Of a DNA stretch of 64,000 nucleotides, positions 8,686 through 40,870 are shown piece after piece. This DNA comes from Pecten maximus. Lineage: Eukaryota. The stretch lies in contig NC_047019.1 of NCBI RefSeq assembly GCF_902652985.1, forward strand, positions 38,316,001 to 38,380,000, written 5' to 3'. The first letter of the stretch is position 1; the number at the start of each line of letters is the position of its first letter. The notes below the pieces were generated by a model. The model made no database searches. It was not told the DNA's origin and saw only the letters and a list, made by a program, of their open reading frames with translations. Position numbers and translations under genes: made by a program.

Positions 8686-9030
8686 TTACCTTTCTGATTA
8701 CGTCTCTACTCCAATAGATCCCTAATACAGTTAAGTAGTTACCTGATTACGTCACTACTCCAGTAGATCCCTATACAGTTAAGTAGTTACCTGATTATGT
8801 CACTACTCCAGTAGATCCCTAATACAGATAAGTGGTTACCTGATTACGTCTCTACTCCAATAGATCCCTAATACAGTTAAGTAGTTACCTGATTACGTCA
8901 CTACTCCAGTAGATCCCTAATACAGTTAAGTAGTTACCTGATTACGTCACTACTCCAATAGACCCCTAATACAGTTAAGTAGTTACCTGATTACGTCACT
9001 ACTCCAGTAGATCCCTAATACAGTTAAGTC
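8686..9030. repeat. Minisatellite, 49-bp unit (ttacctgattacgtcactactccagtagatccctaatacagttaagtag), 7 copies
   Basis: Direct periodicity. Confidence 0.95.
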
Positions 9031-10380: not shown

Positions 10381-10494
10381 ATGATTGAAAGGTGAGGTTT
10401 ATTGTGTAATATAACTGTCAGTTTTATAACAACATGAAATCACAATGTGGTGAATCAATGGTCTATTACATTCCTGATCAAAAGTCTTTACTTT

Positions 10495-10685
10495 ATGCCA
10501 AATTGATTGAGGTCAAATAAACACGGGTAAAAAAAATCAAGGTCAAAACCATCAAGGTCAAATAAACCTTGGTCAAACTAGCCAAGGTCAATCCAATCAA
10601 GATCAAACTAACTGAGGTCAAACCATTCATGGTCAAACTAACCAATGTCAAATCAATCAATGTTAAACTGACCAAGGTTAAAATG
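10495..10685. repeat. Degenerate 15-bp tandem repeat (ggtcaaactaaccaa-like)
   Basis: ggtcaa recurs every 15 bp. Confidence 0.8.
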
Positions 10686-17892: not shown

Positions 17893-20800
17893 GGGATCCT
17901 GTCACAGCCACACACAGGAAGGGGGATCCTGTCACTGTAGCCACACACAGGAAGGAGGATCCTGTCTCTGTAGCCACACACAGGAAGGGGGATCCTGTCA
18001 CTGTAGCCACCCACAGGAAGGGGGATCCTGTCACTGTAGTCACACACAGGAAGGGGGATCCTGTCACTGTAGCCACACACAGGAATGGGGATCCTGTCAC
18101 TGTAGCCACACACAGGAAGGGGGATCCTGTCACTGTAGCCACACACAGGAAGGGGGATCCTGTCACTGTTGTCACACACAGGAAGGGGGGTCCTGTCACA
18201 GTCTTACACAGGAAGGGGGATCCTGTCACAGTCTTACACAGGAAGGGGGATCCTGTCACTGTAGCCACACACAGGAAGGGGGATCCTGTCACTGTAGCCA
18301 CACACAGGAAGGAGGATCCTGTCACTGTAGCCACACATAGGAAGGGGGATCCTGTCACTGTAGCCACACACAGGAAGGGGAATCCTGTCAGAGCCACACA
18401 CAGGAAGGAGGATCCTGTCACTGTAGTCACACACAGGAAGGAGGATCCTGTCACAGCCACACACAGGAAGGGGGATCCTGTCACTGTAGCCACACACAGG
18501 AAGGGGGATCCTGTCACTGTAGCCACAGATAGGAAGGGGGATCCTGTCACTGTAGCCACACACAGGAAGGGGGATCCTGTCACTGTAGTCACACACAGGA
18601 AGGGGGATCCTGTCACTGTAGTCACACACAGGAAGGAGGATCCTGTCACTGTAGCCACACACAGGAAGGGGAATCCTGTCACTGTAGCCACACACAGGAA
18701 GGAGGATCCTGTCACTGAAGTCACACACAGGAAAGGGGTTCCTGTCACTGTAGCCACACACAGGAAGTAGGATCCTGTCACTGTAGCCACACACAGGAAG
18801 GAGGATCCTGTCACTGAAGTCACACACAGGAAGGGGGATCCTGTCACTGTAGTCACACACAGGAAGGGGAATCCTGTCACTGTAGCCACACACAGGAAGG
18901 GGGATACTGTCACTGTTGTCACACACAGGAAGGCGAATCCTGTCACAGCCACACACAGGAAGGGGGTCCTGTCACTGTAGTCACACACAGGAAGGGGAAT
19001 CCTGTCACAGCCACACACAGGAAGGGGGTCCTGTCACTGTAGTCACACACAGGAAGGGGAATCCTGTCACAGCCACACACAGGAAGGGGGTCCTGTCACT
19101 GTAGTCACACACAGGAAGGGGAATCCTGTCACAGCCACACACAGGAAGGGGGATACTGTCACTGTTGTCACACACAGGAAGGGGAATCCTGTCACAGCCA
19201 CACACAGGAAGGGGGTCCTGTCACTGTAGTCACACACAGGAAGGGGAATCCTGTCACAGCCACACACAGGAAGGGGGTCATGTCACTGTAGTCACACACA
19301 GGAAGGGGAATCCTGTCACTGTAGCCACACACAGGAAGGGGGATACTGTCACTGTTGTCACACACAGGAAGGGGGTCCTGTCACTGTTGTCACACACAGG
19401 AAGGGGGATCCTGTCACTGTAGCCACACACAGGAAGGGGGATCCTGTCACTGTAGCCACACACAGGAAGGGTGATCCTGTCACTGTAGCCACACATAGGA
19501 AGGGGAATCCTGTCACTGTAGCCACACACAGGAAGGGGGATACTGTCACTGTTGTCACACACAGGAAGGGGGTCCTGTCACTGTTGTCACACACAGGAAG
19601 GGGGTCCTGTCACTGTAGTCACACACAGGAAGGGGGATCCTGTCACTGTAGCCACACACAGGAAGGGGGATCCTGTCACTGTAGCCACACACAGGAAGGG
19701 TGATCCTGTCACTGTAGCCACACATAGGAAGGGGAATCCTGTCACTGTAGCCACACACAGGAAGGGGGATACTGTCACTGTTGTCACACACAGGAAGGGG
19801 GTCCTGTCACTGTTGTCACACACAGGAAGGGGGATCCTGTCACTGTAGCCACACACAGGAAGGGGGATCCTGTCACTGTAGCCACACACAGGAAGGGGGT
19901 TCTGTAACAGTCACACACAGGAAGGGGGTTCTGTAACAGTCACACACAGGAAGGGGGTTCTGTAACAGTCACACACAGGAAGGGTGATCCTGTCACTGTA
20001 GCCACACACAGGAAGGGGGATCCTGTCACTGTAGCCACACACAGGAAGGGGGTTCTGTAACAGTCACACACAGGAAGGGGGTTCTGTAACAGTCACACAC
20101 AGGAAGGGTGATCCTGTCACTGTAGCCACACACAGGAAGGGGGTTCTGTAACAGTCACACACAGGAAGGGGGTTCTGTAACAGTCACACACAGGAAGGGT
20201 GATCCTGTCACTGTAGCCACACACAGGAAGGGGGATCCTGTCACTGTAGCCACACACAGGAAGGGGGATCCTGTCACTGTTGTCACACACAGGAAGGGGG
20301 GTCCTGTCACAGTCTTACACAGGAAGGGGGATCCTGTCACAGTCTTACACAGGAAGGGGGATCCTGTCACTGTAGCCACACACAGGAAGGGGGATCCTGT
20401 CACTGTAGCCACACACAGGAAGGAGGATCCTGTCACTGTAGCCACACATAGGAAGGGGGATCCTGTCACTGTAGCAACACACAGGAAGGGGAATCCTGTC
20501 AGAGCCACACACAGGAAGGGGAATCCTGTCACTGTAGTCACACACAGGAAAGGGGTTCCTGTCACTGTAGCCACACACAGGAAGGAGGATCCTGTCACTG
20601 TAGTCACACACAGGAAGGAGGATCCTGTCACAGCCACACACAGGAAGGGGGATCCTGTCACTGTAGCCACACACAGGAAGGGGGATCCTGTCACTGTAGC
20701 CACACATAGGAAGGGGGATCCTGTCACTGTAGCCACACACAGGAAGGGGGATCCTGTCACTGTAGCCACACACAGGAAGGGGGATCCTGTCACTGTAGTC

Positions 20801-22316
20801 ACACTACAGGAAAGGGGTTCCTGTCACTGTAGCCACACACAGGAAGGAGGATCCTGTCACTGTAGCCACACACAGGAAGGGGAATCCTGTCACTGTAGCC
20901 ACACACAGGAAGGAGGATCCTGTCACTGAAGTCACACACAGGAAAGGGGTTCCTGTCACTGTAGCCACACACAGGAAGGAGGATCCTGTCACTGTAGCCA
21001 CACACAGGAAGGAGGATCCTGTCACTGAAGTCACACACAGGAAGGGGGGTTCTGTCACTTTAGCCACACACAGGAAGGAGGATCCTGTCACAGCCACACA
21101 CAGGAAAGGGGTTCCTGTCACTGTAGCCACACACAGGAAGGGGAATCCTGTCATTGTAGCCACACACAGGAAGGAGGATCCTGTCACTGTAGCCACACAC
21201 AGGAAGGGGGATCCTGTCACTGTAGCCACACATAGGAAGGGGGATCCTGTCACTGTAGCCACACACAGGAAGGGGAATCCTGTCACTGTAGTCACACACA
21301 GGAAGGAGGATCCTGTCACTGTAGCCACACATAGGAAGGGGGATCCTGTCACTGTAGCCACACACAGGAAGGGGGATCCTGTCACTGTAGCCACACATAG
21401 GAAGGGGGATCCTGTCACTGTAGCCACACACAGGAAGGGGAATCCTGTCACTGTAGTCACACACAGGAAGGGGGATCCTGTCACTGTAGCCACACATAGG
21501 AAGGAGGATCCTGTCACTGTAGCCACACACAGGAAGGGGGTTCCTGTCACTGTAGCCACACACAGGAAGGGAGTTCCTGTCACAGCCACACACAGGAAGG
21601 GGGATCCTGTCACTGTAGTCACACACAGGAAGGGGGTTCCTGTCACTGTAGCCACACACAGGAAGGGGGATCCTGTCACTGTAGTCACACACAGGAAGGG
21701 GGATCCTGTCACTGTATCCACACATAGGAAGCGGAATCCTGTCACAGACACACACAGGAAGGGGGGTCCTGTCACTGTATCCACACATAGGAAGCGGAAT
21801 CCTGTCACAGACACACACAGGAAGGGGGGTCCTGTCACTGTAGCCACACACAAGAAGGGGGATCCTGTCACTGTAGCCACACACAGGAAGGGGGATCCTG
21901 TCACAGCCACACACAGGAAGGGGGCTTCTGTCACTGTAGTCACACACAGGAAGAGGGTTCCTGTCCCTGTAGTCACACACAGGAAGGAGGATCCTGTCAC
22001 TGTAGCCACACACAGGAAGGGGGATCCTGTCACTGTAGCCACACACAGGAAAGGGGAATTCTGTCACAGTCTTACACAGGAAGGGGGGTTCTGTCACAGC
22101 CACACACAGGAAGGAGGATCCTGTCATTGTAGCCACCCACAGGAAGGGGGATCCTGTCATTGTAGCCACCCACAGGAAGGAGGATCCTGTCATTGTAGCC
22201 ACCCACAGGAAGGAGGATCCTGTCATTGTAGCCACCCACAGGAAGGAGGATCCTGTCATTGTAGCCACACACAGGAAGGGGGATCCTGTCATTGTAGCCA
22301 ACCACAGGAAGGGGAA
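17893..22316. repeat. Minisatellite, 33-bp unit (ggatcctgtcactgtagccacacacaggaaggg), about 135 copies
   Basis: Direct periodicity; internal tcctgt/acagga inverted repeat. Confidence 0.98.
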
Positions 22317-23220
22317 GCCCCATACAGCAACTACATAGACATCCCCACCCTCCAGTACAAGAACTACATAGACATATCTCCCCCATACAGGAACTACATA
22401 GACATATCTCCCCCATACAGGAATTACGGTATTCAGATACAGTGTCACAAATACAAGTAATACTGGACTCATTAACACTGTCAATCAATATATCCCTATA
22501 CATCCCCATTCCCAATACAAAAACAGCAATGACAGAGAAGATGAACTGGACCTAATGCTCAACATCCTTGACCACTTGACCTTTGGAAGACTTGTCCCAA
22601 GTGTCCACTTTGGACTGACCTTTGCCAATAGGACAATATAACTGTAAGGAGGGAAGGTTAGATACTGGCCTTTGTATACCAGTCAGTCTGTTTGCTAACC
22701 TTTTACCAGGAATAGTGTAGATATAATTAATGAGACAATCTTGTAGTTATTTTGTAGTAAAGGTCAGAATGAATTTTGATGTGCATTCGTGATACATCAT
22801 GGTCTAATTCATATAAACATAAGGAATACAAATTGAGTTATTTCTCTGTATAGAAGGTTGACATTATGACTTTCTGTGTCTATTGATTAATCAGACCCTA
22901 TACTGTTATTCAGGTATTTGGTTCAATTTCTTTGGTTACAAAATGTTTTATGACAGAAAAACTTACAAGTGTAGTGTGTAGATTATATAACAGGCCAAAC
23001 ATTTCCTATGACGCATGTACCCAATTGAACCATTCTTTACCCTTATGAAACATATCCATTATATCATTTGTAATTCAGAACCACACCTCTGTTACGAAGT
23101 GTTAGCTCACAAATACACACCTTCCCGTTCTATAACACAAGTGATCAATCTCTGAGACTGACTTACATGTTGAAACTTTCTGACGAGAATAAACCTGGCA
23201 TGCAGCCGTATTTCAGCAGA

Positions 23221-25200
23221 CTATACTGATACATGTACAGGACACCCTACAGGACAACCTATACTGATACATGTACAGGACACCCTATACTGATACATGT
23301 ACAGGACACCCTATACTGATGTATGTACAGGACACCCTATACTGATGTATGTACAGGACACCCTATACTGATGTATGTACAGGACACCCTATACTGATGT
23401 ATGTACAGGACACCCTATACTGATGTATGTACAGGACACCCTATACTGATACATGTACAGGACACCCTATACTGATGTATGTACAGGACACCCTATACTG
23501 ATGTATGTACAGGACACCCTATACTGATGTATGTACAGGACACCCTATACTGATACATGTACAGGACACCCTATACTGATGTATGTACAGGACACCCTAT
23601 ACTGATGTATGTACAGGACACCCTATACTGATGTATGTACAGGACACCCTATACTGATACATGTACAGGACACCCTATACTGATATATGTACAGGACACC
23701 CTATACTGATGTATGTACAGGACACCCTATACTGATACATGTACAGGACACCCTATACTGATGTATGTACAGGACACCCTATACTGATACATGTACAGGA
23801 CACCCTATACTGATGTATGTACAGGACACCCTATACTGATACATGTACAGGACACCCTATACTGATGTATGTACAGGACACCCTATACTGATGTATGTAC
23901 AGGACACCCTATACTGATGTATGTACAGGACACCCTATACTGATACATGTACAGGACACCCTATACTGATGTATGTACAGGACACCCTATACTGATGTAT
24001 GTACAGGACACCCTATACTGATGTATGTACAGGACACCCTATACTGATACATGTACAGGACACCCTATACTGATGTATGTACAGGACACCCTATACTGAT
24101 GTATGTACAGGACACCCTATACTGATGTATGTACAGGACACCCTATACTGATGTATGTACAGGACACCCTACAGGACACCCTATACTGATGTATGTACAG
24201 GACACCCTATACTGATGTATGTACAGGACACCCTATACTGATACATGTACAGGGCACGTACCCTATACTGATGTATGTACAGGACACCCTATACTGATGT
24301 ATGTACAGGACACCCTATACTGATGTATGTACAGGACACATACTATACTGATATATGTACAGGACACCCTATACTGGTACATGTACAGGACACCCTATAC
24401 TGATGTATGTACAGGACACCCTATACTGATGTATGTACAGGACACCCTATACTGATGTATGTACAGGACACCCTATACTGATGTATGTACAGGACACCCT
24501 ATACTGATGTATGTACAGGACACCCTATACTGATGTATGTACAGGACACCCTATACTGATGTATGTACAGGACACCCTATACTGATACATGTACAGGACA
24601 CCCTATACTGATGTATGTACAGGACACCCTATACTGATGTATGTACAGGACACCCTATACTGATGTATGTACAGGACACCCTATACTGATGTATGTACAG
24701 GACACCCTATACTGATCCATATACAGGACACCATATACTGATGTATGTACAGGACACCCTATACTGATACATGTACAGGACACCCTATACTGATGTATGT
24801 ACAGGACACCCTATACTGATGTATGTACAGGACACCCAATACTGATACATGTACAGGACACCCTATACTGATGTATGTACAGGACACCCTATACTGATGT
24901 AAGTACAGGACACCCTATACTGATACATGTACAGGACACCCTATACTGATGTATGTACAGGACACCCTATACTGATGTATGTACAGGACACCCTATACTG
25001 ATGTATGTACAGGACACCCTATACTGATGTATGTACAGGACACCCTATACTGATGTATGTACAGGACACCCTATACTGATACATGTACAGGACACCCTAT
25101 ACTGATACATGTACAGAACACCCTATACTGATGTATATACAGGACACCCTATACTGATGTATGTACAGGACACCCTATACTGATGTATGTACAGGACACC
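23221..25200. repeat. Minisatellite, 26-bp unit (ctatactgatgtatgtacaggacacc), about 76 copies
   Basis: Direct periodicity. Confidence 0.98.
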
Positions 25201-25932
25201 GTGTACTACCAAACATGGCTAAATTTCATACGTCTCACTTGACATGAAACATCAAGATTCTACAATATCAATGCAATATCACCCACAAGGAAGCATTCAA
25301 ATGTAGACCGTAATTTGATGAATTAAAAGTTTCTATTACTTATTAGTCTGGTATATGTAGATGTAGTGATTGAAATGTTGTAGAGTATGTTTTCTTCAAA
25401 ATGAAAATTATTTCAAATTGAATTAAGGCTCAATGTTAAGAGTTAATCAGGTTCTCTTGTAATGTTTATCTTTCATTAAGAAAAATATACATACTGAAAC
25501 ACTATCACGAACAATAATTGTATTCTATCCCAATTCTGGAATATTGATATAACCCACAATTACTAAATACTTCACTCAATAATCTACTTGTGTCAATTCG
25601 ATTTTTGAATAACAATAAAAAAAAAAAACAATTTCAACTACATTTTTTTCCAAATAACCTAGTCTTAGTGATGTGATAAAGCATCTCATTCACAGCCATG
25701 TTGAAGACCAAGTTCCCAAGTACATGCAATCGATGGCAATTCTGTGTAGGTCTTCCTCTCCCATAGTGAACTGCCACTCTGCCCAGTCCATAAATGCCAT
25801 ATCTTGTCGAGGAGTTAATATGTACGCAACAGCTTTTATTACTATAAGGTTAGACTACTAGTGGAGATAGTATGAAATTTTAACAATAAAATTATATTAA
25901 ATTAGTTTTTTTTTTTTCTATATTTGTTCCAG

Positions 25933-26126
25933 GTCAGATAATAAGGAATATAGTACAGTTGGAGACATGTCTGATGTCTATCTCAGTACCTCACACAAAC
26001 TTGTAATTCATTACAAGAAAGATTCAATTATCTTGAATCTTGCGGGAATCGAGGTCCTGATGAAGAAGAGTCAAAACATGAATATTGATAATGGAATGGA
26101 TTATATATTTATGCATTTCATGCTAG
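25933..26126 (+). other. Candidate internal exon of an unidentified plus-strand transcript
   Basis: Long T tract then ttgttccag acceptor, tag|gtgagt donor, and one frame open for all 194 nt (SDNKEYSTVGDMSDVYLSTSHKLVIHYKKDS...MHFML). I do not recognise the product. Confidence 0.3.
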
Positions 26127-27026
26127 GTGAGTTAATACATGAATCATTTGAGACAATTGACAACATAAACAGCTATAAATTACCATTTCTGTATTTTTTA
26201 TTCAGCTACACAAGACAGAATAATATCAAATGTAAAGTACAGACAGGAGGATAATGAAGAATTCCAGAATACAGACGATAAAATCATATCAAATATAGTC
26301 TTTTTAATCCAAACAAAAGGATTACATCATGTTTATATCAAAATGTAACAAATCAATTTAGGTAAAACTGGAATGCTTCAATAAAATTGTTTGTACTGAA
26401 GAAAGAAAAATAAAACCCAGTTTGACAAAAATATTTCTGTAGCAGCTTTAGATATACAGCTTACCAATTACACAAGAAATATGCCATTATAATACATCAA
26501 TATTAGTACACCAACAACAACATCCTGTATAGAACATCACAGCAAAATACAACAAGCAATACCGATTGTTAAAACCTAGTCCTGTCATAGAACTCCAGGG
26601 AAAATGGACTCTCCTCTCTCACCATAAATAAATGCCAGCTTGCATGACAAACTCATTTAGATTCCAGAAAAGAATTGAGTTGAATAATTTCCAATTTTGA
26701 AGTTTATAGTAAGAATCTGTTCAACGTGAATGTAACCATTGATTTAGCACAGAGAGGATAAAATTACAGATTTATTTTTCTCGAAATATTTGTTGGGTTA
26801 ACAAATCAGTATCTATAATAGAATTTCAAGGAATCAAAATTAGTCATCAATTTTTAAATATCTTTATACAGTTAATATGATTTACATAGGCTCAAAGGGA
26901 TAATAAGACATATTGTATCATAAAGTAAATTTTAAAAAATAAGTAAATGTTAAATAAAAAAATAATTCAATAAAAATCTAATTGAAGAATAATACTATAT
27001 GTAAAAAAAAAAGCCTTTAAGAAGAC

Positions 27027-27032
27027 TTTATT
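27027..27032 (-). promoter_or_regulatory. Candidate polyadenylation signal (AATAAA) of the PTN/MK-like gene
   Basis: AATAAA on the minus strand is followed about 15 nt downstream by a T-rich tract. Other AATAAA hexamers lie nearer the stop, so the choice is uncertain. Confidence 0.3.
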
Positions 27033-27496
27033 GCGAGTACAACATGACAGTGGATGTAGACAAAAGAGCTCACAGCTTCAGTACACTTTGTCACAGTGAC
27101 CTACAGAACACCATTTTATACACATAGTCTATATCAGAATTTCAAATCTCCGAGTTATTTTTGTGTTTTATTTGTTTGGTCTCGAAAAACCAGCAACGTT
27201 TTGAACAGTGTTCTCACAAAAAGGATGTTTGATTTTGAAAACTTGAACCTTCCTTAAAACACTGTATGGCTACATTTACAGGGCAGAAATTTCCAATGTA
27301 CTATACATAACAAGTCCCGTTACAAAGTAACCATGCATGGTTAATATCTAAAATTTCTTCCAAAGAAAAAATATTGTATCCGATCCATTTGCACGCATGC
27401 TCTGTTTCAACAGACTTGTACGGAGTAACCATGCACATAACAAAAAGCATTCAAGTGAACATGCTTTAGTGTAGATTAGAACTGTGGGCCCATGAT

Positions 27497-27666
27497 GGCC
27501 TGTGAGGACCTTCTGTCACATGACTCTAAGTACGAACCTATAGGCCTGTGAGGACCTTCTGTCACATGACTCTAAGTACGAACCTATAGGCCTGTGAGGA
27601 CCTTCTGTCACATGACTCTAAGTACAATAATAGAACCTATAGGCCTGTGAGGACCTTCTGTCACAT
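27497..27666. repeat. ~46-bp tandem repeat (ggcctgtgaggaccttctgtcacatgactctaagtacgaacctata), about 4 copies, in the putative 3' UTR
   Basis: Direct periodicity. Confidence 0.88.
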
Positions 27667-28485
27667 ACATGTCTCTATTTTGCCCGAAAATAGAACTTTT
27701 GAGCCCACAGTGTGTGTGAACTTTCTTTGACAACAAAGCCTTTATTTCACAGAAAATAGAACAGGAAAGTCCACCGCCTGTGAGGACTATCTGTCATAGC
27801 CTTACTTAAAGTTTTCTATAATACAAAATTGGGAGAAAGAGTCCTCAGCAATGATGTGGAAGATAAAACAGCTACACACGTCACCCGACATTAAGTTACA
27901 CAATGAATATCTATGATGATGAACAGTAATCTCATTGAAAAGTCAAACCCTCAAATATAAAACTTTGACACAAAATTCAAAACGTGTTTCTAAAAAAACT
28001 CCCTGGGACTGAATTTAGCATTTCATCGGTAAGTTATAGCATATTTATTTCTTCTGTTCGCAGAAAAGTATGACATCTATAACATTTCTTCTGTTCGCAG
28101 AAAAGTATGACATCTATAACCTATCTCACAGCAGTTAGAATACACTTGGTATTTCTTTCTGATATTCTATTCCTAATCACATCGAAACAATTCAAAAGGA
28201 AATATCTTTTTGTACATCTGATCAAATATGTGTTAACCATGTTATATACAAGTAGCATACATGATATAAAGAAGCTGTGTGATATTTCCTGATCAATAAG
28301 TTTTTGGGATATGATGACACAAACAATCGACTAGAGAGGTTAGTGGGTTAACTATTTAAATCTCCAATTGACCTGGCCGTAACATTGAATTAATTTTCTA
28401 ATCTGGTTGGAAGAAACCCTTAAATCAGGAGTATTCACACAGCCTCTGATATAGTGTCACGGTGCTAAATACAAATATACACTGT

Positions 28486-28751
28486 CTATTCATTCTCATC
28501 AATGAAACCAGCACTACCTGGGCCAGCATTCTTTCGGTTCTGGCGTCTCTTTTGTTTGCGTTGCTTCTTCTTTTCCTTCTTTGTCTTTCTCTTCATTTTC
28601 TTTTCGTGTTTTCTACATTTGACTGCTATTTCTTTCGTTGGTTCACATAATGTTGGGTCTTGTCCTGGTTTAAGAGTTAGGATTCTGGTGGCATTGCCAT
28701 TTGGACATGCTGAAGTGTCCCAGTCGACAGATTTATCGTACTTACACTTGT
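28486..28751 (-). CDS. Terminal coding exon: module 4 plus polybasic tail (KCKYDKSVDWDTSACPNGNATRILTLKPGQDPTLCEPTKEIAVKCRKHEKKMKRKTKKEKKKQRKQKRRQNRKNAGPGSAGFIDENE*)
   Basis: Acceptor gggttttttcag|ac in phase 1, TAG at 28488-28486. A Lys/Arg-rich tail is typical of the PTN/MK family. Confidence 0.88.
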
Positions 28752-31700
28752 CTGAAAAAACCCACAAAATCAACTATAACACTCATCAGCAATACAAAAA
28801 CAAACAACAGTTCATATGCATAACTACATTTCACAATATTTGCTATTCTTGTATTTCCTGTCCAATATGTACCTACATATGTATTGTTTGTCCAATATAT
28901 ATCTACATATGTATTTCCTGTCCAAAATGTACCTACATTTGTATTTCCTGTCCAAAATGTACCTACATATGTATTTACCTACATATATATATTTCCTGTT
29001 CAATATATACCTACATATGTATTTCCTGTCCAATATGTACCTACATATGTCTTTCCTGTCCAATATGTACCTACATATGTATTTCTTACCTACATATATA
29101 TTTCCTGTCCAATATATTATACCTACATATGTATTTCCAAACTTACCTCTACCTACACCCAGTAATGTATAATGTTTTGTAAACTATTTATTTTGCAACA
29201 ATTGCGTAACAAGTTATATCAACATATATTAATCACTCTTGATGAAAGCACACGAGGGGTCTTACTATAGAAGGAATCAGGAAATTTGTAAATCAGCACT
29301 CACATTTCTTGACACCAGTAAATAAGTTAACAAGTTTCAAAAAAAAAAGTTACTTGGAGAGTAAAGTGATATGGCATGATATTGGAAATATTTTATCAGT
29401 TACACTGTAGATTCACAACAGCAGTCTAAATCAACATTTGACAAAAACTGGTATGAAGCCCTGATGTGTTTTGGTATATGTACACCTTTCTGTAAATATA
29501 TCTCAGATTAGTTCTAACGCTAGTGCAAAATGAGGGATCTAGCATTTGATTCTGATATATATGTACCTCCTGCATAGAGAGTTCCTGGATACTTTTTATA
29601 CCCCTACCAAAACATAAGGTAAGGTCGTGAAAGTAAACACAGTTATAATACTGTCAAGGAAAAGTCGATCATCTATCATTTAAGCAGAGATTGCATATAA
29701 GATCATACTGAAAGCTTATAAATAAAGAAAATTACTATCTGCTTACTCTTATTCTTCATTTTCCTGCACGGCTTGGTTTTGTTTTTCTCCGGACAGGCGG
29801 GGTTCTGTCCAGGAAGGAGAGGGAAACTGATAACCATTGTGTTTGTCGCCAAGTTACACTCTCCAATTACACGCTTACCATACTGGCACTTCATATTGAC
29901 TGAAACACACCAGAAATGATTTACAAGATTACAGTGCAACAAACAGACCAATCAGAAATGATTTAAAACATTATGTTAAAACAAACAGACCTGCAATCAG
30001 AAATGATTTACAAGATTACAGTACAACAAACAGACCAATCAGAAATGATTTAAAAGATTATGTTAAAACAAAATGACCAATCAGAAATAATTTACAAGAT
30101 AATATTTAAACAAACAGACCAATCATGATACTTTGACACATTCAACTCCTGCAAGGCTTTATATTTTTCCCCCTCACAGTAGTAAATTTTATGTACCTGT
30201 TGAGATTGACACACCTTTGTACAAATGTGATTGTCTACTTTACAACTGGTTAGACTCCTACATCCAGGCAGTAGACAGTTTGATAATTCAGGAAATTGAA
30301 TGGTTCTGGTAAATCCAGGATTACTGGGATATCTCTGATTTAAACATTGAGTGCTTATGTTGAAGCTTACATTTTTTGTCAGTTTTTCACAAAATGTGGT
30401 ATAGTTTTGTAAATTGTCTAATGCCAAGTATTTGACTGCTTGCCTGAAAGCAAATATAGGAACTTTGGGAAAAGAGCAAAACACATATATATACTACAGC
30501 TATAGTCACTTAGACTTGGACTTGGAAAACCTAATGTTTAAGGAGAGTTTGGACTCCTCTGACCTTGAAACTGGCCTTAGGACACAAATGAGCAAATTTG
30601 ATAGCCTGATACCATCAAACTACAATTTAAGTATGAATAATATGACTGACTGAGGATAAAATGATTACCCTAGGACATTGCTCCCTAGTGGTGTCATGGT
30701 AACGAGTGGTGGACACCAGTTTTGTGTTTCTAGTCACCAGTTAAGGACCTATGATTGGTTCATGAGATGCCAAGCAGGCAGGAGTACTGTCAGTGGGTGC
30801 AACAGATAGCATGAGGATATCTTTGAGAAAGTGCAGGTGACCTTGACCTGACCTTGGAAGCTTAAAAAATTGCAATCTTAAATGCATTGCATGAAGTTAA
30901 GTGCTATTGGCCAATATCAACAAATGGCAGAAACAACTTCCTGTTTTTAGCAAAATGGCTTAAACCTTTGAACTTCAAACATTAACTTAAACCTTCAAAC
31001 TTCAAACATAAACTTAAACCTTCGACGTCAAACATTAACTTAAACCTTCAAAGTTCAAACATTAACTTAAACCTTCGACTTCAAACATTAACTTAAACCT
31101 TCGAACTTCAAACATAAACTTAAACCTTCGAACTTCAAACATTAACTTAAACCTTCGACTTCAAACATTAACTTAAACCTTCGAACTTCAAACATAAACT
31201 TAAACCTTCGAACTTCAAACATAAACTTAAACCTTCAACTTCAAACATTAAAAGAACTGTGCACATGCTACACCTGAATAACCAACCTAGGTAGATAACA
31301 GTAACATAGTTACCTTTATTGGGCTTGCACCTTTTCGTTTTGATCTTGAATGGTTCACATTGCTGGTCGGGACCTGGAATCAGTGGTTTTCTGATTTCCA
31401 TCGTCCTGTTTATGGGGTCACATGGCCCAACAATTGCAGCTCCATACTTACATACACCTGTAACCAATAAATGTATTTATCATTAAACACTAATTTACAC
31501 CGTAAGATAGCAAAAGGATATTCACTGCATGGACTATACATACTAACCAAATACATGTATCTGTATATATACTCACAGGAGAAAACCTAAAGGGCGTTTC
31601 AAACTTGATTGACCTTACATTGGACTGGCAGTGTGAAGGCCTATGAGGGAGTTTCAGACTTGACTGACCTTACATTGGACTGGCAGTTGTGAAGGCCTAT

Positions 31701-34700
31701 GAGGGCGTTTCAGACTTGACTGACCTTACATTGGACTGGCAGTTGTGAAGGCCTATGAGGGAGTTCCAGACTTGACTGACCTTACATTGGACTGGCAGTT
31801 GTGAAGGCCTATGAGGGCGTTTCAGACTTGACTGACCTTACATTGGACTGGCAGTTGTGAAGGCCTATGAGGGAGTTTCAGACTTGACTGACCTTACATT
31901 GGACTGGCAGTTGTGAAGGCCTATGAGGGAGTTTCAGACTTGACTGACCTTACATTGGACTAGCAGTGTGAAGGCCTATCAGTCTGTCAGTTTAGAGGTC
32001 AGCTGTGAAGGACTGTATGCTATATTTGACTTGACTATGGACTGACAGTGCAGGGTCTGTGAAGTAATGCATGTTATATTTGACTTGACCTTGGACCGAC
32101 ATCGTGACGTCTGTGAAGGAATGCATGTTATATTTGACTTGACCTTGGACTGACAATGTGGAGTCTGTGAAGGAATGCATGTTATATTTGACTTGACCTT
32201 GGACTGACAGTGTGGGGTCTGTGAAGGAATGCATGATATATTTGACTTGACCTTGGACTGACAATGTGGAGTCTGTGAAGGAATGTAAAGCTCGGAAAAA
32301 GAGTTCCAGGACTGGGCCTAGGACAGATTGTCAGACAGAACAGAATGAAAACTTGGAAAACCTACTACAATCCCTTGTCTGGACTTTTGGTGCACTGCAG
32401 TCTGGTTGATTGTTGGGCTTGGGTTGAAGTGTCCTTGTCTTTGTCCTGGTTACAGGATCACAATCACTCCATCTGGCTTTCTTAGAATATCTACAGCCTG
32501 AAACAAAATACATGGACATTTAATAAAGACACACATGGATATCATTAACTACTCCCTACCATTATAGAATGTCTGTCCTCTATTCCCCTGTCGACCCACC
32601 TACTCCCTACCATTATAGAATGCCTGTCCTCTATTCCCCTGTCGACCCACCTACTCCCTACCATTATAGAATGTCTGTCCTCTATTCCCCTGTCGACCCA
32701 CCTACTCCCTACCATTATAGAATGTCTGTTCTCTATTCCCCTGTCGACCCACCTACTCCCTACCATTATAGAATGTCTGTCCTCTATTCCCCTGTCGACC
32801 CACCTACTCCCTACCATTATAGACTGTCTGTCCTCTATTCCCCTGTCGACCCACCTACTCCCTACCATTATAGAATGTCTGTCCTCTATTCCCCTGTCGA
32901 CCCACCTACTCCCTACCATTATAGAATGTCTGTCCTCTATTCCCCTGTCGTCCCACCTACTCCCTACCATTATAGACTGTCTGTCCTCTATTCCCCTGTC
33001 GTCCCACCTACTCCCTACCATTATAGACTGTCTGTCCTCTATTCCCCTGTCGTCCCACCTACTCCCTACCATTAAAGAATGTCTGTCCTCTATTCCCCTG
33101 TCGTCCCACCTACTCCCTACCATTATAGACTGTCTGTCCTCTATTCCCCTGTCGTCCCACCTACTCCCTACCATTATAGAATGTCTGTTCTCTATTCCCC
33201 TGTCGACCCACCTACTCCCTACCATTATAGAATGTCTGTCCTCTATTCCCCTGTCGACCCACCTACTCCCTACCATTATAGAATGTCTGTCCTCTATTCC
33301 CCTGTCGTCCCACCTACTCCCTACCATTATAGACTGTCTGTCCTCTATTCCTCTGTCGACCCACCTACTCCCTACCATTATAGAATGTCTGTCCTCTATT
33401 CCCCTGTCGACCCACCTACTCCCTACCATTATAGAATGTCTGTCCTCTATTCCCCTGTCGACCCACCTACTCCCTACCATTATAGACTGTCTGTCCTCTA
33501 TTCCCCTGTCGACCCACCTACTCCCTACCATTATAGAATGTCTGTCCTCTATTCCCCTGTCGACCCACCTACTCCCTACCATTATAGAATGTCTCCCTTC
33601 TATTCCCCTGTCGACCCACCTACTCCCTACCATTATAGAATGTCTGTCCTCTATTCCCCTGTCGACCCACCTACTCCCTACCATTATAGAATGCCTGCCC
33701 TCTATTCCCCTGTCGACCCACCTACTCCCTACCATTATAGAATGCCTGCCCTCTATTCCCCTGTCGACCCACCTACTCCCTACCATTATAGAATGTCTGT
33801 CCTCTATTCCCCTGTCGACCCACCTACTCCCTACCATTATAGAATGTCTGTCCTCTATTCCCCTGTCGACCCACCTACTCCCTACCATTATAGAATGTCT
33901 GTCCTCTATTCCCCTGTCGACCCACCTACTCCCTACCATTATAGAATGCCTGTCCTCTATTCCCCTGTCGATACACCTACTCCCTACCATTATAGAATGC
34001 CTGCCCTCTATTCCCCTGTTGACCCACCTACTCCCTACCATTATAGAATGTCTGTCCTCTATTCCTCTGTCAATCCTGCCTACTCCCTACCATTATAGAA
34101 TGTCTGTCCTCTATTCCCCTGTTGACCCACCTACTCCCTACCATTTAGAATGTCTGTCCTCTATTCCTCTGTCAATCCTGCCTACTCCCTACCATTATAG
34201 AATGCCTGTCCTCTATTCCCCTGTCGACCAACCTACTTCCTACCATTATAGAATGTCTGTCCTCTATTCCCCTGTCGACCCACCTACTCCCTACCATTAT
34301 AGAATGCCTGCCCTCTATTCCCCTGTCGACACACCTACTCCCTACCATTATAGAATGTCTGTCCTCTATTCCCCTGTCGACCCACCTACTCCCTACCATT
34401 ATAGAATGCCTATCCTCATTTAAAATTATTATTTGGTACAAAAAGGAACAATCACCAATGCTATTAGCCTATAGTTTATGTTTTGTTCAGAAGCCTGTTA
34501 CATTGTAATATAATCGTAGAAGAAAATGAGAAAACCCCATGTCATCAGATGATTCTGTTGATAACTGCCAAGGGGTTAGCTGGCAGGCACAAGGGGACCA
34601 GTATTTGCTTCGTTGTGTACAGCAAAAACTATGATGCTATTGTTAAACCTGATCTATAGACATTTCAATGTTAAGAATCAATACATCTCCGACTCCTGTG

Positions 34701-37700
34701 TGCAGCAACACTCTGCTGTAGGCAAATTATCCTGCCAGCAGAAAGACTGACAGATCAGCTGGACATCCAATATTATTTTGGCCTTCTGTTATGGATCATC
34801 ATTGTGAATTTGGTTAGCATTTATACAAGAGCCCGTATTTCTATATAATTATGATGACAGAAGACATCTTTGACAATCAATGAGCCTACAACAACAATCA
34901 ATCCATCAGAATGACAGACAGGCTCTAACCACACACAGCCAGATGACAGCATGTAAATACATTACATAATCTGAAGAATGGAAATTACCAACAATTCCTT
35001 GTTCAATTACTTTTTTTCTGTATAATTTTTCATTACTAAGGCATACTATAGAAAGGTTACTGTAGGAAAACCACATGTGGCATTTAGACTGGGAGTTGGA
35101 GGCTACAAGAATGTGAATGAATACGGAATCAGCTGATAATAGCTATAGTTTTATTCCTTCATTTGTCTGCTCTGTAAAATTGAAGACAATTTCTCTTGGA
35201 TATGGTAAGGGACTTGGACTTCATAGGAACCAATCAAATATACTGTAGTCCTCATTTAACAGCTAAGTGCAACAGTGAATATCATTGGTCACTAAGTGCA
35301 ACAGTGAATATCATTGGTCACTAAGTGCAAAAGTGAATATCATTGGTCACTAAGTGCAACAGTTAATACCATTGGTCATTAAGTCCAACAGTAAATATCA
35401 TTGGTCACTAAGTGCAACAGTGAATATCATTGCATGGTCCCTAAGTGCAACAGTTAATATCATTGGTCATTAAGTGCAACAGTGAATATCATTGGTCACT
35501 AAGTGCAACAGTTAATATCATTTTCAAACACATTCAATATCCAACTACAATCTGCAGAAAATATGAATGTGTATAGAAAAAATTGTTCCTTATGATTAAT
35601 GAAGGTGAAATCGAAGTTAAGGGAAAGTCTTCTTCAAATGATTAAGATTTAAATTCAAAATGAGACACGACGAGTCAGAAGTCTTAATCATTTCAGGTTG
35701 GAAGGTAAATCATTGAGAAAGTTTTCAGATGAGGTCATACATTTGACAAACACACAAGGAGCATGTCATTGGTAACTCATGAGCAGAATGTATTTAACAA
35801 ACTCACAAGGAGCATGTCATTGGTAACTCGTGAGCGGAATGTATTTAACAAATTCACAGCTGAGCATGTCATTGGTAACTCGTGAGCGGAATGTATTTAA
35901 TAAACTCACAGCTGAGCATGTCATTGGTTACTCGTGAGCAGAGTGTATGTAACAAACTCACAGCTGAGCATGTCATTGGTAACTCATGAGTGGAATGTAT
36001 TTAACAAACTTACAGTTGAGCATGTCATTGGTAACTCATGAGTGGAATGTATTTAACAAACTCACAGCTGAGCATGTCATTGGTAACTCATGAGCAGAAT
36101 GTATTTAACAAACTCACAGCTGAGCATGTCATTGGTAACTCATGAGTGGAATGTATTTAACAAACTCACAGCTGAGCATGTCATTTGTAACTCGTGAGCA
36201 GAATGCATTTAACAAACACACAAGGAGCATGTCATTGGTAACTCATGAGCAGAATGTATTTAACAAACTCACAGCTGAGCATGTCATTGGTAACTCGTGA
36301 GCGGAATGTATTTAACAAACTCACAGCTGAGCATGTCATTGGTAACTCATGAGCGGAATGTATTTAACAAACACACAAGGAGCATGTCATTGGTAACTCA
36401 TGAGCAGAATGTATTTAACAAACTCACAAGGAGCATGTCATTGGTAACTCATGAGCAGAATGTATTTAACAAACTCACAGCTGAGCATGTCATTGGTAAC
36501 TCATGAGCAGAATGTATTTAACAAACTCACAGCTGAGCATGTCATTGGTAACTCATGAGTGGAATGTATTTAACAAACTCACAGCTGAGCATGTCATTGG
36601 TTACTCGTGAGCAGAATGTATTAAATAAACTCACAGCTGAGCATGTCATTGGTAACTCGTGAACGGAATGTATTTAACAAACTCACAAGGAGCATGTCAT
36701 TGGTAACTCATGAGCAGAATGTATTTAACAAACTCACAAGGAGCATGTCATTGGTAACTCATGAGCAGAATGTATTTAACAAATTCACAAGGAGCATGTC
36801 ATTGGTAACTCATGAGCAGAATGTATGTAATAAACTCACAGCTAAGCATGTCATTGGTAACTCGTGAGCAGAATGTATTTAACAAACTCACAGCTGAGCA
36901 TGTCATTGGTAACTCGTGAGCGGAATGTATTTAACAAACTTACAGCTGAGCATGTCATTGGTAACTCATGAGTAGAAATTGACAAACTCATCAGAATTAG
37001 AAGACTAATGAATAACTAACCAGTAGAAAGTGATGGACAAACTCATTAGGGACATGTTATGGTGTACTGGTGAGCAGCATGTGATCCAGTGATTAGTGAG
37101 GGGAATGTGACCCGTATGTGATCCAGTGGCTGGTGGTGGTGGTTAAAGAGACCTTTCCGTCAGCCTTGGCCTACCATTATACATTCAGTTTCCTGACTTA
37201 ACATTTCACTGCACTGGCTGAATAATCATTCAGCATGTAAAAAACATCTTCAATTTGTGTGGCAAACATTCATCACTTTAAACTATTAGAAAACAAATTA
37301 TAAAAGACGTTCCCTTTTCACAGCAATATTTTTAAACGAATGTCAATTTTAATGTTTGAAGCGCAGTGTGCAGTACCAATTTATCCCTGAAATTAAAGAA
37401 TCCAAGCTTTACAGCCCAATGAGAAATAAATCTATATTAACATGGTAACATTCAGATGAATGGGAATGACATCCATTAAAGAATAGTGTTTACCTGAAAC
37501 TCGGATTTAACATGCAAACTCTGTGAATTATCACGTTACACGTAGAAACACTCGAGACACAGCTATCTCAGATCCATAGTGTATATCATAGAAATGAGAG
37601 GTGGAATCCAGGTGGAATCAATAGGGGCATCGAGGGGGGCATCAAAGGGGCATTGAGGGGGCATCAAGGGGGCATCGAAGGGGCATCAAGTGAGAATCTA

Positions 37701-40700
37701 GGGGGAAGCGAGGGGGAAGTGAGGTTAGGTATTAGGTATAGAGGTGGGGGATGGAGGGGTTAAGTATTAGGTAGAGAGGTGGGGGATGGAGGGGTTAAGT
37801 ATTAGGTATAGAGGTGGGGGATGGAGGGGGTAAGTATTAGGTAGAGAGGTGGGGGATGGAGGGGTTAAGTATTAGGTAGAGAGGTGGGGGATAAGAAGGG
37901 GTTAGTACTTACGGGTCTCGCGGGGTGGGCTGAGGGGTTCCGTCTTAGTCTCGCGGTTGGTGGCTGTGCGGGTCCGTCTTCTGGTCTAGCGTGTGGGGGG
38001 ATGGAGGGGTTAAGTATTAGGTATAGAGGTGAGGGATGGAGGGGTTAAGTATTAGGTATAGAGGTGGGGATGGAGGGTTAGTTATGGTTGAGGTGGGGTG
38101 GGGGTTAAGTATTAGGTATAGAGGTGGGGGATGGAGGGGTTTAAGTATTAGGTATACGACGGTGGGGGCTGTGAGGGTGTTTCGGTCTGATAGGTGGGGG
38201 ATGGGGGTTCGTCTTGGTTAGAGGTGGGGGATGGAGGGGTTAGGTATTAGGTATAGAGGTGGGGGATGGAGGTTTCGTTTGGTATCGAGGTGGGGGTGAG
38301 GGGTTGTTTCGGTCTCGGGTGGGGCTGGGGGGTACGTCTTCGGTCCAGAGTTGTGGGATGGAGGGGTTCGTATTAGGTATAGGGTGGGGGCTGGGGGGTT
38401 AAGTATTCAGGTATCGCGGTGGGGATGGGGGTTACGTCTTAGGTCTGCAGGTGGGGATGGGGGTTCAAGTATTAGGTATAGACGTGGGTGGATGGTAGTA
38501 GTCATTCGGTTAGGGTGGGGTGGAGGGGTTGTATTTAGGTACTAGGGTGGGGATGGCGGGGTTCGTTTCGGTCGGTGTGGGGCTGGCTGGGTTAGTCTTC
38601 GGTTCGGTGCGGTGGGGGCTGGGGGGTTTGTCTTCTGTACGGGGGGGGGCTGGCGGGGTTCGTCTGTCGGTCCGGTGGGGGCTGGCGGGTTCGTCTTCGG
38701 TTAGCGAGTGGGGGCTGGCGGGGTTCGGTCTTGGGTTATCGCGGTGGGGGCTGGCGGGGTTCCGTCTTCGGTCTCCGGTGGGGCTGGCGGGGAGTGTTGG
38801 TTCGGTATCGCGGTGGGGGTGGCGGGGTTCCGTCTTCGGTCGCGACGGTGGGGGTGGCATGGGTTACCGTACTTCGGTATCGCGGTGTGGGATGGGGGGT
38901 TCCGTCTTGGTATCGCGGTGGGGGTGGGGGTTCGAGTTTTGGTTCTGCGGTGGGGGACTGGGGGGTTCGTCTTAGGTTAGAGGTGGGGGATGGAGGGGTT
39001 AAGTATTAGGTATAGAGGTGGGGGATGGAGGGGTTAAGTATTAGGTATAGAGGTGGGGGATGGAGGGGTTAAGTATTAGGTATAGACGGTGGGCTGGATG
39101 GGGTAGTATTAGGTGGGTGTGGGCTGGCGGGGTTTCCGTCTTCAGGTTAGGGTGGGCTGGAGGGGTTCGTATTGGTCTGAGGTGGGGGCTGGACGGGGTT
39201 ACGTCTTCGGTCTGCGGTGGGGGCTGGAGGGGTTACGTATTCGGTTCGGTGGGGGCTGGCGGGGTTCGTCTTCGGTCTCGCGGTGGGGGCTGGGGGGTGG
39301 TACTTGGTAGGCGTGGGGGTGGAGGGGTTAAGTATTAGGTAGAGAGGTGGGGGATGGAGGGGTTAGTCTTCGGTCCCGGGTGGGGGATGGAGGGTTCGTT
39401 CAGGTACAGCGGTGGGGCTGGCGGGGTTCCGTCTTCGGTCTCGGGTGCGGGCTGGCGGGGTTGGTCTTGGGTCTCGACGGTGGGGGTGGCGGTGTTCCGT
39501 TTAGGTCTCGGGTGGGGGCTGGAGGGGGTAGGTCTTACGTCTCGGGTGGGGGATGGAGGGTTCGTCTTCGGTCGGGTGGGGGATGGCTGGGTTCACGTCT
39601 TCGGTTCTAGCGTGGGGTGGCGGGGTTCCGTCTTCGGTCAGCGGTGGGGGATGGCGGGGTTCCGTATTCGGTCGCGCGGTGGGGGATGGAGGGGTTCAGT
39701 TCTTCGTCTGGCGTGGGGTGGCGGGGTCGTTTCGGTCTCGGGTGGGGGTGGGGGGTCTCGTCTTGGTTCGCGGTTGGGGCTGCGGGGTAGTATTGGTTGC
39801 GGTGGGGGTGGCGGGGTTCCGTCTTCGGTACTTGGTGGGGGCTGGGGGTTCGTCTTGGTCTCGGGTGGGGGCTGGCGGGTTCCGTCTTGGTCAGAGGTGG
39901 GGGTGCGGGGTTAAGTCTTGTCTCGCGGTGGGGCTGGCGGGGTTAGTCTTCGGTTCGCGGTGGGGGCTGGCGGGTTCCGTCATTCGGTTCGGGTGGGGGC
40001 TGCGGGGTTCCGTCTTCGGTTCGTGGCGGTGGGGCTGGGGGGTTCGTCTTCGGTCTAGCGGTGGGGGCTGGTGGGTTCCGTCTTCGGTCTCGGGTGGGGG
40101 CTGGCGGGGTTCCTCTACGTATCGCGCTGGGGGCTGGAGGGGTTCACGTCTTAGCCTTGCGGTGGGGCTGGCGGGGTTCGGTCTTGGGTTTGGGTGGGGG
40201 CTGGGGGGTTCCGTCTTCGTGCGGTGGGGATGGCGGGGTTGATGGTCTTCGGTTCGCGTGGGGGCTGGCGTGGGTTCCGTCTTCGGTTAGCGGGTTGGGG
40301 CTGGCGGGGTTCCGTCTTCGTTCGGGTGGGGGCTGGCGGGGTCTTTCGGTCTCGAGGTGGGGGTGGCGGGGTTAGGTCTTCGGTTCGCGTGGGGGCTGGG
40401 GGTTTCGTCTTCGGTCGCGGGTTGGGGCTGGAGGGGTTGTCTTAGGTCTCGCGGTGGGGGCTGGCGGGGTTCGTCTTCGGTCTAGCGGTGGGGGTGGCGG
40501 GGTTTGGTCTTGGTCTGCGCTGGCGGGGCTGGCGGGGTTCCGTCTTCGGTCGGCGCGGTTGGGGCATGGCGGGGTTCCGTATTCGGTCTCGCGGTTGGGG
40601 GCTGGGCGGGGATTCCGATCTTACGGTCCGGCGGTGCGGGCTGGCGGGGTTCCGTCTTCGGTACTCGCGGTGGGGGCTATGCGGGGTTCGTCTTAGGTCT

Positions 40701-40870
40701 CCGCGGGGTGGGGCTGGCAGGGTTCAGTCTTTAGGTAGAGAGGTTGGGGATGGAGGGGTTAAGTATTAGGTAGGTAGGACATGGCAGTAACACATTACCT
40801 CGGTTCCTCCGGCCCCAGACACAGACACTGCCAGCACCAACAATACAGCAAATACAAATACAATCTTCAT
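28486..40870 (-). CDS. Spliced gene: secreted pleiotrophin/midkine (miple)-like heparin-binding protein with four PTN/MK C-terminal-type modules; join(40799-40870, 32366-32497, 31314-31457, 29747-29899, 28486-28751), about 255 aa if the +1 frame problem in the first exon is corrected
   Basis: Four exons each carry C-[KRQ]-Y-x(6-10)-C...C...C, are bounded by canonical splice sites and splice in frame. The module matches the PTN/MK C-domain pattern (CKY...W..CD..T..KTRT..L......C.......C). The protein has a Lys/Arg-rich C-terminus and a hydrophobic N-terminal leader exon. Confidence 0.85.
28845..29150. repeat. Intronic minisatellite, 30-bp unit (tatttcctgtccaatatgtacctacatatg)
   Basis: Direct periodicity. 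Confidence 0.9.
29747..29899 (-). CDS. PTN/MK-like module 3 exon (NMKCQYGKRVIGECNLATNTMVISFPLLPGQNPACPEKNKTKPCRKMKNK)
   Basis: Acceptor tgtgtttcag|tc, donor a|gtaagc, 153 nt, phase 1-1. CQY..GEC.L.T...C......KPC resembles the PTN C-domain. Confidence 0.88.
29910..30125. repeat. Intronic ~42-bp tandem repeat (cagaaatgatttacaagattacagtacaacaaacagaccaat)
   Basis: About 5 copies adjoining the module 3 acceptor. Confidence 0.85.
30960..31250. repeat. Intronic minisatellite, ~27-bp unit (ttaaaccttcgaacttcaaacataaac)
   Basis: Direct periodicity. Confidence 0.92.
31314..31457 (-). CDS. PTN/MK-like module 2 exon (VCKYGAAIVGPCDPINRTMEIRKPLIPGPDQQCEPFKIKTKRCKPNK)
   Basis: Acceptor ttattggttacag|gt, donor g|gtaact, 144 nt, phase 1-1. 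Same four-Cys spacing as module 1. Confidence 0.88.
31590..31980. repeat. Intronic minisatellite, 55-56-bp unit (gtttcagacttgactgaccttacattggactggcagttgtgaaggcctatgaggg)
   Basis: 7 copies. Confidence 0.93.
32000..32286. repeat. Intronic minisatellite, 54-bp unit (tgtgaaggaatgcatgttatatttgacttgaccttggactgacagtgtggggtc)
   Basis: About 5 copies. Confidence 0.9.
32366..32497 (-). CDS. PTN/MK-like module 1 exon (CRYSKKARWSDCDPVTRTKTRTLQPKPNNQPDCSAPKVQTRDC)
   Basis: Acceptor tattttgtttcag|gc, donor a|gtaggt, 132 nt, phase 1-1. Contains the canonical CRY..W..CD..T.TKTRTL motif. Confidence 0.9.
32547..34418. repeat. Intronic minisatellite, 51-bp unit (cctactccctaccattatagaatgtctgtcctctattcccctgtcgaccca), about 36 copies
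   Basis: Direct periodicity; source of the 498-aa repeat ORF. Confidence 0.98.
35262..35522. repeat. Minisatellite, 29-bp unit (ctaagtgcaacagtgaatatcattggtca), 9 copies
   Basis: Direct periodicity. Confidence 0.93.
35745..36975. repeat. Minisatellite, 51/52-bp unit (gagcatgtcattggtaactcatgagcagaatgtatttaacaaactcacagct)
   Basis: Direct periodicity. Confidence 0.97.
37722..40772. repeat. G-rich minisatellite, 35-bp unit (ggggttaagtattaggtatagaggtgggggatgga), heavily A->C altered internally
   Basis: Clean units at 37730-37880, 38980-39080 and 40740-40770. In between, units read ggggttccgtcttcggtctcgcggtgggggctggc. Confidence 0.92.
40799..40870 (-). CDS. Signal-peptide exon of the PTN/MK-like gene (MKIVFVFAVLLVLAVSVSG-A...)
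   Basis: Acceptor ttgtttattgcag lies one base before the ATG at 40870. The peptide has a basic n-region, a hydrophobic h-region and a VSG/A cleavage motif. Donor is gag|gtaatg. As written it ends in phase 0 while the next exon needs phase 1. Confidence 0.7.

Follow-up and report, generated by a model that had tools for sequence, protein, structure and literature searches.

A gene encoding a chain of pleiotrophin/midkine-type modules lies on the minus strand of a 64,000-nucleotide (nt) stretch of the Pecten maximus genome (contig NC_047019.1, positions 38,316,001 to 38,380,000), referred to here as the window. The locus is set between long minisatellites (106 rows in the tandem-repeat listing of the window). 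Coordinates are window positions, except for four exons outside the window, which are given on the contig (G000:C5). The features of the locus are:

40799..40870, minus strand: exon 1 (E1), 72 nt, with the start codon, a hydrophobic signal peptide (judged from the sequence and its orthologues) and a short basic RRNR linker
32366..32497, minus strand: E2, module 1, a PTN_MK_C module (PF01091, expect value (E) 2.3e-7, over the gathering score), joined by RNA
31314..31457, minus strand: E3, module 2, a divergent PTN_MK_C module without Trp (PF01091 E 4.1e-4, under the gathering score), joined by RNA
29747..29899, minus strand: E4, module 3, a divergent PTN_MK_C module (PF01091 E 5.7e-7, over the gathering score), joined by RNA
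28486..28751, minus strand: E5, with module 4, a Lys/Arg-rich stretch and the stop codon (PF01091 E 2.8e-4, under the gathering score)
28518..28751, minus strand: the part of E5 common to both putative isoforms, with module 4 and the Lys/Arg-rich stretch
28512..28517, minus strand: candidate internal phase-1 splice donor GTAGTG in E5, recognized by its sequence and its phase match to E6 and predicted to be used in Pecten maximus
28486..28517, minus strand: read-through tail of the short isoform, with the rest of a Gly codon, 9 further residues, an acidic end and a TAG stop
27800..28485, minus strand: 3' untranslated region (UTR) belonging to the short isoform, 686 nt or longer, extending below 27800, covered by RNA contigs
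1..28517, minus strand: the window's share of a putative 45,135-nt intron of the long isoform, leading to E6 to E9 outside the window
G000:C5 38299382-38299251, minus strand: E6, outside the window, a further module exon
G000:C5 38298284-38298126, minus strand: E7, outside the window, a further module exon
G000:C5 38276674-38276528, minus strand: E8, outside the window, a further module exon
G000:C5 38269620-38269481, minus strand: E9, outside the window, a further module exon carrying the stop codon

E2, E3, E4 and E5 are all open, and each encodes a module with four Cys that starts with C-x-Y. E2, E3 and E4 have phase 1-1 boundaries and lengths that are multiples of three. The net charge per exon ranges from 0 to +18. 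The short tail after module 4 comprises 42 residues, with 19 Lys or Arg in the first 30 after the last Cys and an acidic end. Four RNA runs (X7, X8, X9 and X10; four studies, of 24 listed) were aligned to positions 27800-32600; X10 is recorded as RNA, and X7 to X9 are presumed to be RNA. RNA contigs join E2 to E3 and E3 to E4 in all four runs and E4 to E5 in three of them (the contig of X9 breaks there). All of these joints read CT..AC on the plus strand, that is, GT-AG introns on the minus strand. Continuous contigs run through the E5 stop into the 3' UTR in all four runs, and the cover reaches the edge of the examined stretch in three of them and position 27808 in X10. AATAAA occurs in or near the 3' UTR at 28049, 27746 and 27172, among other positions. 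In contigs of two studies (X7 and X8), E1 is linked straight to E2 and carries one base more. The gene is real and expressed, and the four-module protein exists as RNA. A preliminary description of this DNA had proposed four in-frame exons, each with one 4-Cys C-x-Y module, behind a signal-peptide exon and followed by a Lys/Arg tail of about 30 residues. The open exons, their phases and the RNA joints bear out the four modules. The in-frame splicing holds for the four module exons but not for E1 as assembled, where the RNA supplies one more base, and the tail has the proposed basic part but is longer and ends in acidic residues.

Two observations accompany the RNA alignments. Within the 3' UTR (28091-28422), contigs carry 7 extra letters behind 28121 (three of four runs), 1 behind 28271 (all four runs) and several substitutions, which are either alleles or further assembly errors. 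Two short intronic stretches (29186-29246 and 30653-30707) are overlain by numerous unrelated contigs whose ends are loose on either side, and are dispersed repeats common to other transcripts.

All four window modules match PF01091 (PTN_MK_C), and two exceed the gathering score; the whole four-module orthologue of Argopecten reaches 71.7 bits, with the cut-off at 25.3. A sequence search of the PDB with the four-module profile returned three matches, namely the pleiotrophin C-domain (E 1.9e-4), the midkine C-domain (E 2.3e-3) and a midkine-related growth factor (E 0.18); the proposed link to the pleiotrophin/midkine C-domain is supported by these searches. The AlphaFold model of module 1 is a long hairpin with a predicted local distance difference test score (pLDDT) of 87.8. 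Its top structure matches are midkine-a (Foldseek E 1.4, template modeling score 0.65) and the pleiotrophin C-domain (VIA Z 4.4, root-mean-square deviation 1.5 over 41 residues), and these are weak and tied with thrombospondin type-1 repeats (TSRs). For this reason the sequence evidence carries the family assignment. TSRs have a related fold, but their Pfam matches here are weak (module 1, E 0.04-0.1; module 8, E 0.0013), and PF01091 scores much higher for modules 1-4. A TSR identity was rejected, since the scores for PF00090 and PF19028 are 13-19 bits and stay below the respective cut-offs (21.6 and 41). Each scallop module has four Cys, whereas a typical TSR has six.

Modules 2 and 3 are mutually closest, with 44% identity. 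In the AlphaFold model of the Argopecten eight-module protein, eight confident hairpin modules have no fixed arrangement (pLDDT 81.9, predicted template modeling score 0.28), and in the Argopecten orthologue the basic stretch after module 4 is predicted as one long helix (residues 212-240). The four scallop orthologues computed have net charges of +30 to +58 and isoelectric points of 9.7-10.1. The hydrophobic N-terminal exon, joined to E2 in the RNA of two studies, is kept in three other scallop genera, and the protein is likely secreted via this N-terminal signal peptide. The N-type domain (PTN_MK_N; PF05196), a check for which had been proposed, has no match in the scallop orthologues and none over the cut-off in the Pecten genome (best E 1.62). 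A hidden PTN_MK_N exon was rejected on this genome search and on the direct joining of E1 to E2. The predicted protein belongs to the PF01091 superfamily and does not qualify as midkine or pleiotrophin if these are defined strictly by N plus C; its predicted C-modules without an N-domain form a miple-type architecture.

E6 to E9 lie 17-47 kilobases (kb) beyond the first base of the window on the same strand and share 82-88% identity with Ylistrum residues 202-395 (genome search). All four are open with canonical splice sites, E6 to E8 are of phase 1-1, and their phases are compatible with the E5 donor, which at 28518/28517 fits E6 in phase across 45,135 nt. A six-frame profile search of 124 kb (G000:C5:38256001-38380000) found exactly eight module-bearing frames. 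Further genome matches on C4 and C9 are weak (E 2.8 with stops, and E 0.15). The coding span from E1 to E9 is 87,390 nt. Eight-module models are present in Ylistrum (439 amino acids, aa) and Argopecten (437 aa), and a partial six-module model of Mizuhopecten crosses the same E5-E6-equivalent junction. Four-module forms are found in Argopecten (254 aa; Logan) and Mizuhopecten (259 aa; GenBank model). In both genera the long and short forms diverge at the same Gly. The short tail of Pecten is matched in length in both genera, and its sequence is nearly identical in Argopecten and similar in Mizuhopecten.

The four window modules are best read as half of an eight-module gene, and the four-module protein as its short terminal isoform. 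The earlier view of an expanded architecture stands in that there are more than two modules, but the four are half of a gene with eight in total. A single gene would encode a chain of disulfide-bonded C-type modules, one per symmetric phase 1-1 exon, with no N-type domain. The short form, made when the internal donor is read through and the nearby 3' UTR is used, would consist of the signal peptide, modules 1-4, the basic helical tail and an acidic tip. In the long form, which we infer for Pecten maximus, the donor would be spliced to modules 5-8, and the basic tail would become a central spacer.

Heparin binding of midkine is described as occurring mainly via the C-domain, through cluster 1 (K79, R81 and K102), cluster 2 and W69, and cluster 1 as required for PTP-zeta binding (PMC3267162). 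Drosophila miple1 and miple2 are reported to be secreted and to bind heparin though the vertebrate residues are not fully conserved; they are dispensable for Alk signalling and viability and influence lifespan (PMC4224452). The heparin positions were mapped onto the scallop modules via alignment to 1mkc and PMC3267162. Complete cluster 1 together with Trp is present in modules 1, 6 and 7, i.e., in three of the eight modules of the gene and in one of the four in the window. Cluster 1 is partial in modules 4 and 5, and module 8 is ambiguous, depending on the register. Modules 2 and 3 have hydrophobic residues at the equivalents of W69, K79 and R81 in all four scallops examined. The cluster-1 pattern holds in three other scallops as far as their sequences extend, and midkine cluster 2 is not kept as such in the scallop modules (alignments, by eye). 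The tetravalent heparin binding suggested in the preliminary description is overstated as judged from the residues, as module 1 alone among the window modules combines complete cluster 1 with W69. Isoform X2 of Ylistrum balloti (P0002 versus P0161) lacks exactly the module-1 exon, which encodes the only first-half module with complete cluster 1; this skipping is possibly a second tuning step. RxxR sites follow the signal peptide and stand at the tail end, flanking the first half, and are conserved in the scallop sequences. Proprotein convertases might cleave at these sites.

By analogy with midkine, pleiotrophin and miple, the secreted and strongly cationic protein would bind heparan or chondroitin sulphate of proteoglycans at the surface of cells and within the matrix, and the bound protein would cluster or bridge these proteoglycans. 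The choice of isoform would set avidity: the short form has a single complete cluster-1 site in addition to the basic tail, and the long form would have at least three sites (modules 1, 6 and 7). Modules 2 and 3 are probably spacers or protein-contact surfaces and not sugar sites. The product is likely a secreted, matrix-bound glycosaminoglycan ligand. Taken as a whole, we consider it probable that a single secreted gene of pleiotrophin/midkine C-modules produces four- and eight-module forms, acting as a glycosaminoglycan ligand with avidity set by its ending. One scallop gene may provide two natural lengths in which module number can be compared with glycosaminoglycan avidity.

The vertebrate midkines and pleiotrophins (PF05196 plus PF01091; PDB 1mkc, 2lut and 8voi) share with the scallop protein the same four-Cys spacing, a weakly matching hairpin model, a signal peptide and a basic tail, and scallop module 1 keeps W69 and cluster 1 of midkine. 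In contrast to the vertebrate N-plus-C proteins, the scallop protein has no N-type domain, has four or eight modules, and occurs in two lengths by alternative ending. The basic tail of the short form is like that of midkine and pleiotrophin, and is internal in the long form. Miple has exactly two C-type modules, whereas the scallop gene has four or eight and a conserved terminal CFFGxW module. Invertebrate proteins labelled 'Pleiotrophin/Midkine C-terminal domain-containing protein', and Saccoglossus 'Pleiotrophin-like 150', contain the same tandem module, many with the same terminal module. Drosophila miple1 and miple2 are described as secreted, basic proteins with repeated midkine/pleiotrophin motifs, like the scallop protein (PMC3267162). 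Among the sequences inspected, three features are found only in scallops: divergence of modules 2-3, a long basic helix in mid-chain and a four-module isoform made by read-through.

To survey module numbers, our own profile was applied to the best 150 of 196 cluster representatives. At least three modules were counted in 67 of them, at least four in 35 and at least five in 22; a single module was found in 38, many of which look like single-exon fragments. Thirty proteins were looked up by name, and about a third carried no name. Proteins with at least four modules span molluscs, annelids, brachiopods, priapulids and hemichordates. The counts are 10-11 in Gigantopelta and Potamilus, 9 in Mercenaria, 8 in Bradybaena and Mya, 7-8 in Paralvinella, 6 in Solemya, Patella and Tubulanus, 5-6 in Octopus, 5 in Lingula, 4-5 in Priapulus, 4 in Ptychodera and Saccoglossus, and 3 in chelicerates. 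A PTN_MK_N domain is also present in front in Lingula, Priapulus, Ptychodera and Saccoglossus. No forms longer than 770 residues were found, which is weak evidence. The four-module protein alone is not a rarity, and expansion is not confined to this gene but widespread, with 3-11 modules in invertebrate proteins. The family to which the module belongs is well known; long tandem forms are common in invertebrate databases, auto-labelled there and little described. No description of multi-module or mollusc forms was found in the literature, judged from titles and the starts of abstracts, with most subscription journals and supplements outside the search. The wide spread comes close to the condition under which the preliminary description had itself given up its novelty, i.e., that such forms are the described norm, though no paper describing them was found. 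A 2005 report by Vanucci and co-workers, of which the title names a Patella 'putative midkine family protein', is cited in the literature and may already show a multi-module mollusc sequence.

P0058, P0082, P0118 and P0154 are longer proteins (505-998 aa) that combine 2-4 modules with other regions. P0008, P0010 and P0012 have three modules in common with the tick proteins P0006, P0009 and P0011 but quite different N-terminal parts, some of them Gly/Tyr-rich and without a signal peptide. These parts represent either alternative first exons or chimeric contigs.

A CFFGxW-type motif occurs in 21 of 170 proteins, always 35-60 residues from the end, and marks module 8. A module tree (about 45 columns, midpoint rooting, support values not read) was used for the positional grouping of modules 5-8 and not for the order of events. 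In it, modules 5-8 of the scallops fall together with their positional counterparts from Solemya and Potamilus, and module 8 clusters with the final modules of Octopus, Lingula, Priapulus, Ptychodera and Tubulanus. Modules 5-8, which lie outside the window, are the conserved and probably the older end of the family, and the short form would drop this end. The papers searched present midkine and pleiotrophin as small factors of two domains and take miple for the invertebrate example; the long forms are perhaps the older state, which would change how the origin of the family is told. We suggest, tentatively and at somewhat less than even likelihood, that the bilaterian ancestor was a long chain with one N-domain, several C-modules and the terminal module, a layout that a brachiopod, a priapulid and hemichordates would have retained. 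The vertebrate (N plus one C) and insect miple forms would then be truncated, molluscs would have re-expanded the chain by duplication of phase 1-1 exons, and scallops would keep a conserved splice-or-stop switch by which glycosaminoglycan avidity is tuned between ligands of four and eight modules. If true, the scallop short form would illustrate, in a living animal, how short forms of the vertebrate type could originate.

The function of the protein could also be mainly cationic antimicrobial defence in mucus or haemolymph, with the basic tail and modules disrupting membranes, perhaps after release at the RxxR sites. A very basic protein with a 30-residue basic helix and the conservation of the RxxR sites in scallops are consistent with this, as is the in vitro bactericidal activity of midkine, pleiotrophin and Miple2 cited in PMC4224452. 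However, the tail is almost without hydrophobic residues and is therefore not amphipathic, and the position-specific conservation of modules from molluscs to hemichordates fits a fixed partner better. We regard antimicrobial defence as an unlikely main role; as a second role, antimicrobial action is compatible with a glycosaminoglycan ligand.

Several results weigh against the single gene with two endings. The E5-E6 splice was not seen in the four runs, E6 lying outside the aligned stretch of 27800-32600, and no loose end stands at the donor 28518 among the 24 of 56 loose ends inspected; all four runs show read-through at the internal donor. RNA contigs drop rare variants and so cannot show the absence of other endings. 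The long forms of the other scallops are putative, known from database models. Three of the four window modules are without complete cluster 1, and the structure matches of module 1, taken alone, are weak. Two tandem four-module genes in Pecten maximus would agree with the presence of the short ending alone in the four runs, with the two separate NCBI gene ids for this species and with the 45-kb length of the linking intron; the eight-module models elsewhere would then be annotation fusions or rare read-through. Against this, the downstream NCBI model (P0160) is separate but partial, without a signal peptide, and starts upstream of the E6 acceptor. Moreover, the junction is shared, to the residue, by models of three other genera, the E5 donor is intact and in phase, and in other molluscs the counterparts of modules 5-8 terminate a single long chain. 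Two genes are quite improbable. In Pecten maximus, the locus is split into two incomplete NCBI models.

The upstream part of that annotation leads to E1. As assembled, E1 ends in phase 0 and meets the phase-1 E2, which gives a stop after 39 codons. The loose ends of X7 and X8 behind 32499 match the end of E1 but have three G where the window has two (40811-40812). The extra G restores the signal peptide, RRNR, G and module 1, which is the RRNRG frame of Argopecten, Mizuhopecten and Ylistrum. One base is probably missing from the assembly at 40811-40812. A hidden phase 0-to-1 exon between E1 and E2, with ten candidates, is not needed, because the RNA runs straight from E1 into E2 with one added base. 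The NCBI model P0005 (Pecten maximus LOC117327981, 168 aa) includes exact matches to E4 and E5 and begins at a Met inside E3; the E1 base error plausibly explains its missing start. In favour of the alternative, a genuine null allele carried by the animal sequenced, is that the evidence on exon 1 comes from RNA contigs. Yet the extra base is present in the RNA of two studies, all eight module exons are intact, and the frameshift sits in a short G/C run beside a badly resolved minisatellite, which suggests poor polishing. We therefore hold a null allele to be very unlikely.

This G-rich minisatellite of 33-35 bases (37723-40760) ends about 40 bases from E1. Its copies match 70-76% with 13-15% indels in the middle and are clean at the edges, compared with about 90% or more in most long arrays of the window, and its appearance suggests unpolished assembly sequence. 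Directly upstream of E1, a pyrimidine run followed by AG (40871-40885) resembles a splice acceptor and stops a single base short of the ATG, and the X7 loose end comprises 217 letters, compared with 73 for the coding part of E1. Because of this acceptor-like signal and the long loose end, an upstream non-coding exon or a longer 5' UTR probably exists.

A structural protein of shell or byssus cross-linking acidic polymers, for which a secreted, Cys-rich, beads-on-a-string protein and the Cys-containing tandem-repeat proteins of scallop byssus (PMC9117251) might speak, is the least supported of the functional readings and highly improbable, since relatives occur in shell-less animals (nemertean, annelid, priapulid, hemichordates and Octopus), one literature search for pleiotrophin in mantle, shell and transcriptome work yielded nothing relevant, and the byssal Sbp5-2 repeats are described as acidic with 2 Cys each in a report that leaves pleiotrophin unmentioned in its main text (PMC9117251). 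A likeness to Sbp5-2 was rejected on the same published description, which gives 2 Cys per Asp/Glu-rich motif (PMC9117251), compared with 4 Cys and a charge of 0 to +18 per exon here.

Elsewhere in the window, a 157-base tandem array of 9.4 copies and, behind it, a GACG microsatellite lie at 50340-52230, and a related single copy is located close by (49150-49350). We take the array to resemble bivalve non-autonomous elements with internal arrays.

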